From IMG/VR virus record IMGVR_UViG_2703718815_000008: a stretch of 4,823 bases of DNA; one strand, 5' to 3'. Position 1 is the stretch's first letter; the number at the start of each line of letters is the position of its first letter. Source of the DNA: a virus. Its lineage: Duplodnaviria > Heunggongvirae > Uroviricota > Caudoviricetes. Positions 641 to 4,000 of this stretch are shown here, piece by piece. The notes under the pieces are model-generated. The model ran no database searches and was not told the DNA's origin. It saw only the letters and a program-made list of their open reading frames with translations. The position numbers were made by a program, and so were the translations under genes.

Positions 641-680
641 AAAGAAAACCCGCAGTTTTTACGCTGCGGGTTTCTGCTTT
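641..680. terminator. Bidirectional rho-independent terminator shared by the yidD-like operon (+) and the hok mRNA (-)
   Basis: Stem CCCGCAG (649-655) / CTGCGGG (664-670) with 8-nt loop, flanked by an A-tract (641-648) and a T-rich tract (671-680), so it gives a U-tail on either strand. Confidence 0.7.
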
Positions 681-759: not shown

Positions 760-900
760 TTACTGTCTACATTGTAAGAACGCCGCAAACTCCGCTCCCC
801 AGAAGCTCATCCGTATCTCACACAGTGAACCGTGTAGCATCCAGATGATGAGGATTGCCGTTACGCAGAACGTAATGGCCGTAAGCGATTTTTGCGACAT
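760..900 (-). CDS. hok: Hok/Gef-family type I toxin (46 aa), absent from the ORF track because it is under the length cut-off
   Basis: Reverse-complement translation: MSQKSLTAITFCVTAILIIWMLHGSLCEIRMSFWGAEFAAFLQCRQ. One N-terminal transmembrane segment followed by SLCEIR and E.AAF motifs, as in Hok of plasmid R1 (..SLCEIRYRDGHREVAAF..) and E. coli HokA/HokC. SD-like AAGGAG about 8 nt upstream. Confidence 0.85.
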   Translation of the reverse strand: MSQKSLTAITFCVTAILIIWMLHGSLCEIRMSFWGAEFAAFLQCRQ

Positions 901-1003
901 AGCGCTTGCTCCTTTTTCGGGGAGGCGCTAACCTACGACTTGCGAAGGTTGTATGGCTAGGGCCTCGGGTTAACGTTAAAGTTGACTCGGGGCCTTTCCA
1001 CAT
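818..1003 (-). CDS. mok: mok-like overlapping reading frame (modulation of killing) of the hok locus
   Basis: 61-codon frame starting at ATG 1003 and overlapping the first 83 nt of hok in a different frame, as in mok/hok of R1. Its start lies upstream of the conserved leader hairpin, unlike R1, so the exact start is uncertain. Confidence 0.4.
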   Translation of the reverse strand: MWKGPESTLTLTRGPSHTTFASRRLAPPRKRSKRYVAKIAYGHYVLRNGNPHHLDATRFTV

Positions 1004-1008
1004 TCGGC
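941..1008 (+). ncRNA. sok: Predicted Sok-like antisense RNA (about 65 nt)
   Basis: Inference by analogy to R1 Sok. Candidate + strand promoter TTGCTC (906-911)-N17-TAACCT (929-934), TSS near 941. Imperfect hairpin 961-994 (GGCCTCGGG...CTCGGGGCC) followed by a U-rich stretch (995-1004). Antisense to the hok leader and mok start. Boundaries approximate. Confidence 0.3.
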
Positions 1009-1053
1009 CTTCGGGTATTCCCTCCAGCCATCAGCCGAAAGGCACCCGCGCGA

Positions 1054-1083
1054 ATTCTAGCCTGGTTTTTTCCCTTGTTTCAA
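1054..1083 (-). promoter_or_regulatory. Predicted hok promoter (TTGAAA-N18-TAGAAT on the - strand)
   Basis: -35 TTGAAA (rc of 1078-1083), -10 TAGAAT (rc of 1054-1059), giving a TSS near 1048. The predicted 5' end GGGUGCC (rc of 1041-1047) is perfectly complementary to GGCACCC (rc of 693-699) in the 3' UTR, matching the tac/fbi end-pairing typical of hok mRNAs. Predicted mRNA about 400 nt, as for R1 hok. Confidence 0.45.
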
Positions 1084-1087
1084 TCCG

Positions 1088-1117
1088 TTGAGACTTATCA
1101 GCCTTCTGATGTAAAAT
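1088..1117 (+). promoter_or_regulatory. Candidate + strand promoter divergent from the hok promoter (TTGAGA-N18-TAAAAT)
   Basis: -35 TTGAGA (1088-1093), -10 TAAAAT (1112-1117) with TG immediately upstream. Would give a transcript of about 64 nt ending at the 1164-1187 terminator. Confidence 0.3.
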
Positions 1118-1163
1118 TCCCGACCGCAGACATTATTCAGTCACGCATTTGATACATGCTTCC

Positions 1164-1187
1164 GCCGGCGTTCGCGCCGGTTTTTTT
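1164..1187 (+). terminator. Rho-independent terminator (+ strand)
   Basis: GC-rich stem GCCGGCG (1164-1170) / CGCCGGC with loop TTCG, followed by T7 (1181-1187). On the - strand there is no U-tract after the stem, so it is oriented for + strand transcripts. Confidence 0.6.
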
Positions 1188-1665: not shown

Positions 1666-1692
1666 AAAAACGCACGGTCGGAACCGTGCGTT
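1666..1692 (-). terminator. Rho-independent terminator of the - strand operon (downstream of the 565-aa gene)
   Basis: Stem AACGCACGG (1669-1677) / CCGTGCGTT (1684-1692) with loop TCGGAA. On the - strand the stem is followed by a U5 tract (complement of A1666-1670), about 40 nt after the stop codon at 1731-1733. Confidence 0.55.
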
Positions 1693-1730: not shown

Positions 1731-3428
1731 TCAGGCGATAAGGTCGCCGTATTTTTCGCGCAGGCTCGTAGCCTGCAGGGCATCTGCGGCAAGTTCGCCG
1801 CTGTTCATTGGTGCGCCAGTGTTGTTGTGGGTGTGGTTTGCTGTGTGCGTGGCCAGCAATTGAATCAGATCCAGAATATCAATCAACAACGTCAGCAGAT
1901 TAAGTTCGGATTTTTCCCGTGAGCCACCGCGACCAATAAATACTGTCGGGGCTGTAAACTTCAGACCGCCGTCCGCCCGGCATGTTCTGCGGCCTCCCAC
2001 GTTTTCAGTCAGGTCCTGCTCAATTGTGGATATTGTCCCTTTGAGTTTAGTCAGCAAATCCTGCGCTACCATCTGGATATGCTCGCTGGCTGCGATCGCG
2101 TAATGGCCGGTAGTAAGGTGCTCTATTTGTCCTGCCGCCAGCTTGCTGGTTCCCAGAACACTGGTTATGTCGTTTGCCCGTACTGTGGTTGTTCTGGTTG
2201 TTGTGGTGCGCTCTTCTGCATCACTGTTAATTGTGCGGGTGGCTGACTGCTCCCTGATTTGCTGGTCTGTTTCTCTGTGCCAGCTTCCGTCAGTCGTGAC
2301 GCGCTGAAACACTTCTGCGCGCTGTTGCTGCAGTTGTTCGCCGGGCTTTACATCAGGCAGGTTATGGCCAGCAGGTAAGATTTGCCTGATAACAGGTTTA
2401 TCCGGGCGCCCTTCAATGTTAGATATTTCCACGATGGTGCCTGCCGGCGGGTAGGCAAAACATCCCGCCTCGCTACCAGCCATCGGGACGGGGAGTGGGA
2501 CTGCCGGGTAAACAGGCGTATCGCTTTTATCGTTGCCGTCCTCATCGAGCAGTTGCACGTCCACGGCGTAGCGTGGACGGAAGCTGTCGGCCACATCGCC
2601 CAGGGTGGCGGATTCCGTTGGTGCAATGACGCGCGCCAGCCTGGTGTGTAGTGTGCCGCTGGCCAGTTCCGGGAACTGTGTTTCCATCTGTCTGCGTAAT
2701 GGTGATTTGGAGACAGGGCTGCCCGTGACGGTAAGGCGCTCCCACGTCAGAGTCATTTTCTCGTTGTTGAGGGCTACGCGGGTAATACGCCCGGTGGGAA
2801 GATTCACGCCCGGTCGCACAGTTTCCATGAACATGATGTCGATGCTGTTTCCGCCGCTTTGCCCGAGAGCGTACTGTTGCGGAATATCCGGCATCGTAAT
2901 ACTGGCAAATCGTGAATCAGCGGCGCTTCCCACAAATACAGAACCGTCCGGCATTGGGTGCCAGACGTAATCGCTGATACTGAATGCGCGCCCCAGCTGG
3001 CTGAGTAGCTGCGTTCCGCTGCCGCTGTGGGTGATGTAGGGGGTTGGTGTGTTGACATAATCCGCGTCCGGGGTGATAAAAACGATGCCGCTTTGTCGTC
3101 CCAGATTATCTAACACCTCCCGCAACGTCGGGTGTTGCATGGAGCAGGGGAAATCAAAATCCAGCACAGCAGCTGCTTCACGGATAAAAAGGCGGCGCGA
3201 ACCATTTTCGGCGGGTTGGTCGCGTTCAACGTAGCCGGAGAAATAGCGCCAGACTTCACCGTCACGGCCGAGATCAATTTGTACCATTGCGCCGGCAAGG
3301 CTTTTTTCTGGTGACAGATTATTAACAGAAATGAAGCCACGACCGGCAGCATTCAGGGTAAGAACAAGGCTTATATCGGCAATTTCCACCCGTTCGCCAT
3401 TAATCATGCAGCGTTGTATCAATTTCAT
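1731..3428 (-). CDS. Hypothetical 565-aa protein; tentatively a phage-tail-like structural protein (baseplate hub/spike- or fibre-like), last gene of the operon
   Basis: Long ORF with strong RBS GAGGAAGGG and an ATGA start/stop overlap with the upstream gene. No Walker A motif, no signal peptide. Thr-rich tract TTTTRTTTV and His-rich C-terminal segment LIQLLATHTANHTHNNTG (HxH-type motifs occur at metal-binding tips of trimeric phage spikes and fibres). An N-terminal segment, FSGYVE...TLREVLDNL...GIVF, loosely resembles gpD/gp27/VgrG hub motifs. Product is inference only. Confidence 0.8.
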   Translation of the reverse strand: MKLIQRCMINGERVEIADISLVLTLNAAGRGFISVNNLSPEKSLAGAMVQIDLGRDGEVWRYFSGYVERDQPAENGSRRLFIREAAAVLDFDFPCSMQHPTLREVLDNLGRQSGIVFITPDADYVNTPTPYITHSGSGTQLLSQLGRAFSISDYVWHPMPDGSVFVGSAADSRFASITMPDIPQQYALGQSGGNSIDIMFMETVRPGVNLPTGRITRVALNNEKMTLTWERLTVTGSPVSKSPLRRQMETQFPELASGTLHTRLARVIAPTESATLGDVADSFRPRYAVDVQLLDEDGNDKSDTPVYPAVPLPVPMAGSEAGCFAYPPAGTIVEISNIEGRPDKPVIRQILPAGHNLPDVKPGEQLQQQRAEVFQRVTTDGSWHRETDQQIREQSATRTINSDAEERTTTTRTTTVRANDITSVLGTSKLAAGQIEHLTTGHYAIAASEHIQMVAQDLLTKLKGTISTIEQDLTENVGGRRTCRADGGLKFTAPTVFIGRGGSREKSELNLLTLLIDILDLIQLLATHTANHTHNNTGAPMNSGELAADALQATSLREKYGDLIA

Positions 3429-4000
3429 GTTTTCCCTTCCTCTTTCACGCTCCCGATGCCAACAGCATCCAGACCAGAGCCAACGGCATCATTGATTTTT
3501 TTCCAGAACGAACTTTGCGTATTCATGCCTTTGTCTGGTGCCTGTTCGCTACCGTTCTGGGTCTGCTGTCTGGCGATGGTTTTCTGCGAACCGCTGCGTG
3601 CGGATGCTTTCTCTGGCACGCTTAATTTTTCCCTGAGAGTAAAGGTAACCTGCCAGTGCATTTTTCCCTGTTGTTCCGTGGCATCAATGCCACCAGAAAA
3701 TACCCCCTGTCGCATATTGATTGCCTTCGCGGTAGCGTTAGCAATGCGATATGTTTTTTTAGCACCGTTGCTTTCTGTTGCCTCCGCAAGCTGAAAAATA
3801 CGGGTCAGAATAGCTTCATCATTAAAATCAATAACCCCCGACACGCGCAGCTCTTTAGCCTTGTTTCCCTGCTGGGCGCTCGTGGTGCTGGTTGACTGTC
3901 CGGACATATCTTTGTCCGGTAGTTGCATGGTGGCGCTGACGGTGATGTTGCGCAGCAGAATGGCTTCCCCGTCAAGCGCAAGGACAATCATCTGGGTCAT
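3425..4000 (-). CDS. Hypothetical 191-aa protein (Ser/Thr/Gln/Gly-rich; possibly a phage-tail-associated structural protein)
   Basis: ORF with excellent RBS AAGGGAGG 7 nt upstream of ATG 4000. Stop overlaps the start of the 565-aa gene (ATGA). No signal peptide, transmembrane segment or nucleotide-binding motif. Product unknown. Confidence 0.75.
   Translation of the reverse strand: MTQMIVLALDGEAILLRNITVSATMQLPDKDMSGQSTSTTSAQQGNKAKELRVSGVIDFNDEAILTRIFQLAEATESNGAKKTYRIANATAKAINMRQGVFSGGIDATEQQGKMHWQVTFTLREKLSVPEKASARSGSQKTIARQQTQNGSEQAPDKGMNTQSSFWKKINDAVGSGLDAVGIGSVKEEGKT

Follow-up and report, generated by a model that had tools for sequence, protein, structure and literature searches.

A promoter–terminator unit between the hok/sok cassette and a cos-like block of P2/HP1-family prophages is a plausible lineage-specific small-RNA unit

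What could be the role of a promoter-like element that is followed within a few dozen nucleotides by a strong terminator, with no protein gene between the two? This question is raised by positions 1088–1187 of a 4,823-nt stretch of phage DNA (IMG/VR record IMGVR_UViG_2703718815_000008), the whole of which was analysed and is referred to below as the window. The window represents the accessory end of a P2/HP1-family prophage, where a tail/baseplate operon, a cos-like block, the unit in question and a hok/sok cassette follow each other. The late tail genes lie on the - strand and include those for the HP1_ORF34 baseplate-complex protein (4000..3425) and a 565-aa baseplate protein (phrog_2258; 3428..1731), followed by a late tail terminator found by our scan (1692..1669). 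The hok gene (900..760, - strand) was recognized by a match to the Pfam profile HOK_GEF, and its terminator (674..645, - strand) by the scan. Further to the left, a DUF4177 gene (161–403) and a gene for a homologue of the YidD family of membrane protein insertion efficiency factors (396–629, assigned by family match) are located on the + strand. The end of the DUF4177 gene and the YidD-like gene overlap. The latter and hok converge, and the bidirectional terminator at 645–674 is common to both directions of transcription. In E. coli RM10740, a complete 34.5-kb prophage of this type is located between raiA and pheL, with the gene order methyltransferase, com, TM2, hok, non-coding stretch, baseplate ... 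ogr, replication, cox, C, int.

A consensus scan of the window recovered the promoter-like element that a previous sequence-only reading of this DNA had pointed out. On the + strand, the hexamers TTGAGA (-35, 1088–1093) and TAAAAT (-10, 1112–1117) are separated by an 18-nt spacer (1094–1111) and together match 10 of the 12 consensus positions; with these hexamers and a spacer in the range of 16–18 nt, the element qualifies as a sigma-70-type promoter by consensus match only. The strong terminator that the same reading had placed about 45 nt downstream was also recovered, its stem starting 46 nt after the end of the -10 hexamer. It consists of the hairpin GCCGGCG-TTCG-CGCCGGT (1164–1181), found both by the scan and in the predicted fold, with seven pairs, six of them G-C, and a TTCG loop, and of a T7 tract (1181–1187), the first T of which also closes the stem as a G-U pair. 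With a GC-rich hairpin and a U tract directly behind it in the transcript, 1164–1187 is predicted to act as an intrinsic terminator. On the - strand, no T tract comes after the hairpin, and termination is therefore predicted for the + strand only. The start site that we infer, A1123, lies 6 nt past the -10 hexamer, and transcription from about this position to about U1187 would therefore yield an RNA of about 62–66 nt. The 41-nt body of this RNA (1123–1163) is predicted to be unstructured (MFE -4.2 kcal/mol, z -0.64), the hairpin dominating the predicted fold; the long U tail and the accessible 5' region correspond to the layout of Hfq-associated small RNAs. The neighbouring hok promoter, TTGAAA-N18-TAGAAT (1083..1054, - strand), lies outside the unit. 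It was found by the same scan, and the two opposed promoters are the two best of three promoter-like sites in the window (10/12 each). They stand back-to-back, as had been noted before, with 4 bp between their -35 boxes.

Promoter-like matches as such are not enriched in the window (3 compared to 4.1 +/- 2.2 in shuffles), and terminator-like matches are (16 compared to 7.1 +/- 2.9). A promoter-like site located 25–110 nt before a strong terminator on the same strand was observed in 2 of 400 first-order Markov random sequences with the size and composition of the window, and the pairing of the two elements in the unit is not trivially expected by chance. The previously reported lack of coding potential also held: the sole ATG frame in the interval (1155–1235) was rejected as a peptide, as it crosses the hairpin and is frameshifted by a T5–T8 polymorphism among relatives, which leaves no credible open reading frame. 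We searched the whole window against Rfam 15 at E <= 1 and obtained nothing in 1084–1730, the sole relevant match being the sok/hok leader at 887–1047. A search of the window for tRNA and tmRNA genes identified none, and hence no att-type remnant. The unit resembles no other part of the window in sequence; descent from a decayed Sok or from another part of the window was considered and discarded, the best local alignments being trivial.

The location of the unit next to hok had led to the proposal that it encodes a second regulatory RNA of the toxin–antitoxin locus. The Rfam sok/hok-leader model aligns from position 1047, which fits the hok promoter at 1083..1054. The predicted transcript (1123–1187) is located wholly upstream of the hok start and does not overlap the hok mRNA (1047..~645), and thus would not be antisense to it. 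A duplex between the two was predicted at -29.9 kcal/mol; shuffles averaged -27.8 +/- 3.2, and 52 of the 200 reached the same level. For the putative Sok (~941–1003), at least as good a duplex was obtained with 195 of 200 shuffles. Among 47 translation-initiation regions of the RM10740 prophage, no target exceeded the chance level (best z -2.6). The hok loci of P88, Chuche and Stx phages are homologous to the window from position 15 or 640, and this homology stops at ~1071, before the unit begins. Conversely, several related phages have hok at the same position and no unit (L007, L028–L030, L029/L057 and L089/L095), and on these grounds the unit is dispensable. Having no above-chance pairing and being absent from the hok cassette elsewhere, the unit did not bear out the proposed membership in the toxin–antitoxin locus. 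By homology, it belongs to the variable accessory DNA of the phage and not to hok/sok, and it should not be counted as part of the toxin–antitoxin module when hok loci of these prophages are annotated.

Several observations concern the hok region itself. The segment 15–1071, which spans everything from the DUF4177 gene (161–403) up to and including the hok cassette, shares 87.5% identity with the end of phage P88, a member of a different P2-like genus (Xuanwuvirus). The homology break at ~1071 falls inside the hok promoter region and, by this comparison, is a clear mosaic joint. We found no + strand terminator upstream of hok in P88, and the region upstream of its hok promoter contains what reads as an unannotated ogr-like frame. 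The Sok-like region of the window (938–1010, + strand) is dominated by a 16-bp hairpin (959–996; -36.9 kcal/mol, z -5.8) followed only by UUU(CC); the scan picked up no consensus promoter there. The mok-like frame begins at 1003, upstream of the Sok-like hairpin rather than after it.

Comparison with relatives locates the unit in a highly variable junction. Homology on the hok side ends at ~1071, and a shared non-coding block restarts at ~1211–1235 and runs to 1730; with L007, L017 and the Edwardsiella phages, homology resumes within the same interval, ~1211–1235. The segment between (1085–1215) has at least six configurations among relatives. The window type is represented by 24 distinct sequences, and a diverged version of the unit was found in L025/L051. 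In L007, a deletion has taken away the promoter together with the 5' hairpin arm, and Edwardsiella anguillarum-type phages (L029/L057) join hok directly to the cos-like block. The junction is filled by ~100 unrelated nucleotides in E. ictaluri-type phages (L028/L030/L056) and by yet another sequence in two satellite-like contigs (L089/L095). Finally, in L017 both hok and the unit are replaced by a different gene on the - strand. The joint in L017 (5200–5330 of its reverse strand, corresponding to about 1100–1235 of the window) is located at window position ~1215–1235 and, as judged from this alignment, sets the limit of the exchangeable accessory region on the cos side.

The unit has a narrow distribution. 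Of 5426 complete E. coli genomes, 41 carry it, in each case within this P2/HP1-type prophage, and searches of a plasmid collection and of an isolated-phage collection gave no match. Its carriers include E. coli RM10740 (NZ_CP043821, with the unit at ~2,996,050–2,996,150), STEC316 and E. albertii NBRC 107761. The hairpin pattern retrieved only unrelated generic terminators from IMG/VR, where searches by protein, by protein alignment and by a DNA pattern of the cos core returned the same small family and the two satellite-like contigs. GTDB genomes added E. albertii and two Edwardsiella genomes to the set of relatives. A metagenome scan with anchors outside the unit yielded five E. coli-type copies and four chance matches. 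One metagenome contig of 53 kb (Ga0209547_100018, L098) matches the window exactly from the hok leader to ~1290 and departs from it at two positions near 1294–1301; this similarity suggests a very close relative of the window's source, possibly the same phage type.

On the other side of the junction, the conserved non-coding block (1216–1730, core 1425–1575) separates the accessory region from the last tail gene. A G-rich 19-mer, GGGTTGGAGGGGGTAGCGC (1549–1567), has 12 of 19 matches to the cohesive end of P2 (cosL, GGCGAGGCGGGGAAAGCAC), and the 35-nt core around it (AACCCGCGGG..GCGGTTTACGT) is conserved from E. coli phages to Edwardsiella phages. The core is flanked by the repeats TTTACGTCAC, GAAAACTG[C/A]AAAA and T[G/T]ATGCGATC, as well as by GATC sites. 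Taken together, these motifs suggest that the block probably holds the phage cos site with binding sites for terminase and IHF. A hydrophobic 31-aa open reading frame within it (1356–1451, + strand; MKTLLISCGFIAPAIYAIVKTTLKTAKNFKA) resembles a small membrane peptide. It has no family match, and its ATG is absent in L025 and the Edwardsiella phages; the surrounding ACGTAAAGTAT motif is conserved as DNA in these same phages. The frame is probably not a gene. The same cos-like core is present in a ~10-kb element next to hpt, represented by two IMG/VR sequences (L095, positions 1–12061, and L089). The element encodes an integrase, an 895-aa Toprim primase, a P2-family capsid-like protein and an Ogr/Delta zinc-finger protein; it has its own hok locus (79% identical), no tail genes and no promoter–terminator unit. 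From this gene content, it looks like a phage satellite that borrows the packaging system of this phage family.

The most informative relative is the one that carries the diverged version of the unit (L025/L051) and is ~78% identical to the window overall. An independent scan of its sequence identified TTGAAT-N17-TAAAAT, a promoter with a 17-nt spacer and 9 of 12 consensus matches, followed at a distance of 51 nt by the terminator GCCGGCG-TATTA-CGCCGG-T8. Compared to the window, the -10 hexamer (6/6) and the stems (14/14) are identical, and the loop differs (TATTA). Identity is much lower in the spacer (6/18), in 1118–1163 (20/46, ~43%) and in the 27 nt downstream (10/27). The -35 boxes of the two sequences are aligned by MAFFT despite a 13-nt insertion beside the hok -35 box, and the RNA predicted for L051 has the same layout as that of the window. 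With a shuffle rate of 0.9 per 2600 positions, a promoter would occur by chance within 100 nt before the terminator of the L051 locus with a probability of ~0.035. Since both ends of the unit are kept in this diverged relative, their arrangement is, by this comparison, more than a chance juxtaposition, and the unit looks maintained. No conserved seed is visible between the two lineages compared, in which only 20 of 46 positions of 1118–1163 are identical.

Among E. coli-type alleles, the parts of the unit vary to different degrees; it should be noted that the sequences compared are related and recombining, so that counts do not represent independent events. For the window-type unit, the 24 distinct sequences originate from E. 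coli and E. albertii, from IMG/VR and from metagenomes. Among relatives, the -35 hexamer occurs as TTGAGG, TTGGGG or TTGACT, and as TTGAAT in L025; it is weak in most variants (TTGAGG, TTGGGG), and the spacer measures 18 nt. The spacer (1094–1111) is the most polymorphic part of the unit and the most polymorphic segment within 700–1760 (diversity 0.24; 12 of its 18 columns vary among 25 E. coli-type variants), many variants having the substitution G1111A, which results in TATAAAAT. The -10 hexamer is TAAAAT or TAGAAT in 21 of these 25 distinct variants. The remaining four alleles (L014/L015/L022/L059) read TTGACT...TGCATA, with no usable -10; they retain hok and carry a different hok-side allele up to ~1128, which places a recombination breakpoint within the unit, at ~1125–1130.

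The RNA body is nearly invariant across E. coli-type variants, and the terminator hairpin shows the lowest polymorphism within 700–1760 (diversity 0.007–0.011). The T tract ranges from T5 to T8 among relatives, most having U7–U8 and few U5. The sequence-only reading had suggested covariation as a check on the structure. The hairpin is indeed kept in the 24 distinct variants, with 98.2% of cells paired, but not a single pair has changed on both sides, so that these variants provide no compensatory changes and no statistical covariation. Pair-breaking substitutions in the stem are restricted to L015 (G1180T) and L059 (G1164T), both members of the TGCATA group; the only other stem substitutions, G1164A and C1177T in L100, whose promoter is intact, both keep the pairing. 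Confinement of stem damage to promoter-degraded alleles is what one expects if promoter and terminator cooperate, judging from a few related sequences.

The explanation that we tentatively prefer, as a real possibility, is that the unit is a lineage-specific, stand-alone small non-coding RNA gene of the accessory region, probably acting in trans. According to this model, the sigma-70-type promoter (1088–1117) would read through ~40 unstructured nucleotides and transcription would stop at the terminator (1164–1187), giving a non-coding RNA of ~65 nt. Within the P2/HP1-family prophage, the unit would be a piece of the accessory ('moron') region and lie at its edge, beside the cos-like block. Stand-alone, Hfq-associated, base-pairing small RNAs of other E. 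coli prophages are laid out in the same way, with a GC hairpin and a U7–8 tail after an open 5' part, and for this reason the RNA would most likely act by pairing in trans with an mRNA of the host or of the phage in the lysogen. The two sequence elements, their joint retention in L025 and their independence from the hok cassette are observed features of the locus; from them we infer transcription, Hfq dependence and the existence of a target. The original proposal of a 60–65-nt unit is thereby upheld as far as the anatomy of a small transcription unit is concerned, with both ends kept in the diverged relative, and not as far as membership in hok/sok is concerned.

A rather unlikely alternative is that only the + strand terminator is functional and halts read-through from the accessory region, such as escaped Sok or other + strand moron transcripts, thus protecting the cos-like block and the late tail operon from antisense transcription. 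The promoter-like site would then be an incidental AT-rich sequence. Such a role is consistent with the terminator being the best-conserved element, kept even where the -10 hexamer is lost, and with its action on the + strand only, aimed at cos and the tail genes. Moreover, the Sok-like hairpin is stable but has only a UUU tail, which makes read-through conceivable; the study of hokW/sokW (PMC8621323) gives no Sok 3' end that would settle this point. On the other hand, L025 keeps the promoter at the same distance from the terminator despite its scrambled surroundings, and pair-breaking substitutions are confined to alleles with a degraded promoter, contrary to what a self-sufficient terminator predicts. 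In addition, no such terminator accompanies the similarly oriented hok/sok of P88-like phages, L007 and the Edwardsiella phages.

It is likewise unlikely, in our view, that the unit is an emptied moron cassette or debris of a recombination hot spot, in which the promoter and terminator of a lost gene are now useless. The unit does lie exactly in the hypervariable junction with its at least six configurations, including the L007 deletion and the direct joint of L029/L057; a recombination breakpoint falls inside it (~1125–1130 in the L014 group), and its distribution is narrow (41/5426 complete E. coli genomes, none in the plasmid or isolated-phage collections). However, the empty state, with 46–51 nt between the -10 hexamer and the hairpin, is older than the split from L025, and both ends survived while the neighbouring 27–46 nt fell to ~40% identity, which would be unexpected for neutral debris.

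The drift of the body in the diverged relative also bears on two explanations in which the RNA itself would be of no importance. One, which appears improbable, is an 'RNA-only moron' retained because it is transcribed, whatever the sequence of its RNA: short, insulated divergent transcription next to the hok promoter and the cos site would adjust local supercoiling or the traffic of polymerases and in this way determine hok expression or the accessibility of cos, in the lysogen or during induction. Promoter and terminator would accordingly have been kept across >20% divergence while the 40-nt body drifted. The other, to which we give slightly less credence still, is control of hok in cis: polymerase at 1088–1117 would compete or be topologically coupled with the hok promoter, the RNA being a by-product. 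With -35 boxes 4 bp apart and inferred starts ~77 bp apart, the upstream contacts of the two polymerases would overlap, and an unconstrained body fits selection on the act of transcription. This interference reading is weakened by the distance between the two -35 boxes not being conserved (4 bp in the window and 18 bp in L025). Furthermore, hok cassettes work elsewhere without the unit, as exemplified by hokW/sokW of Sp5, which is functional (PMC8621323) and whose homology to the window ends before the unit, and L014-type alleles keep hok although they have lost the -10 hexamer. Finally, a second antitoxin-like RNA that pairs with the hok mRNA or sponges Sok is very improbable, as only its position beside hok and its Sok-like size and layout speak for it, whereas it does not overlap the hok transcript, its duplexes with the hok mRNA and Sok are matched by 52/200 and 195/200 shuffles, respectively, it is not similar to the rest of the window and it does not co-occur with hok in other phages.

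The preferred reading, a stand-alone small-RNA gene, can be compared with known systems. Similar to Pas (PasA–D of EPEC) and to AgvB/AsxR and Esr41 of EHEC, the unit is an intergenic promoter-to-terminator arrangement in prophage accessory DNA. Pas-type RNAs and the predicted RNA are both tens of nucleotides long and have a patchy, strain-level presence. All Pas small RNAs have a 3' GC hairpin with poly-U and a 5' sequence that diverges, their presence or absence varies at the strain level, their genes are found in 1,362 genomes in lambdoid prophages, and Sok is often located near PasA (bioRxiv 10.64898/2026.05.13.724894). Pas, AgvB/AsxR and Esr41 reside in lambdoid or Stx-type prophages near lysis genes and were experimentally detected as Hfq-binding RNAs, whereas the unit lies in a P2/HP1-family prophage beside cos, has no Rfam match and is known from sequence alone. 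The possibility that it is itself a Pas small RNA was set aside on the indirect grounds of distribution and context, 41 E. coli genomes and P2/HP1 prophages in place of the lambdoid surroundings near holin/lysozyme or Q that are typical of the Pas genes of E2348/69.

Sok (the RF01794 region; hokW/sokW of Sp5, PMC8621323) resembles the predicted RNA in its size of ~60–70 nt, its open 5' part and its terminal hairpin, and both lie on the strand opposite hok, within less than 150 nt of it. Sok, however, is perfectly complementary to the hok/mok leader, with which it overlaps, whereas the unit is located upstream of the hok start, has no complementarity beyond chance and is no part of the conserved hok cassette; it lacks both features that define hok/sok, complementarity and co-inheritance. 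The significance of the unit is limited by its narrow distribution (41/5426 E. coli genomes, E. albertii and one diverged lineage) and by its being dispensable in relatives. Within these bounds, its anatomy and its retention in L025 make it a plausible lineage-specific prophage small-RNA unit. If it is transcribed, a P2/HP1-family prophage would carry a small-RNA gene of its own; the compared Pas and AgvB/AsxR RNAs derive from lambdoid or Stx-type prophages.

A structural parallel is provided by phage morons, in which an accessory gene is surrounded by its own promoter and intrinsic terminator; the unit, in contrast, brackets no protein gene. If it is functional, its cargo would be the RNA itself or the act of transcription. 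The neighbouring inserts vary between relatives and include hok, TM2, com–methyltransferase, DUF4177 and YidD-like genes. In P2 (NC_001895), the tin/old mRNA starts ~150 nt from cosR, the variable accessory region likewise being located beside cos. The P2 accessory region and the unit are alike in being recombination-prone, in having a promoter and a terminator that bracket the insert and in lying next to cos; should the unit prove to be transcribed, the accessory region beside cos can carry RNA cargo in addition to protein morons.
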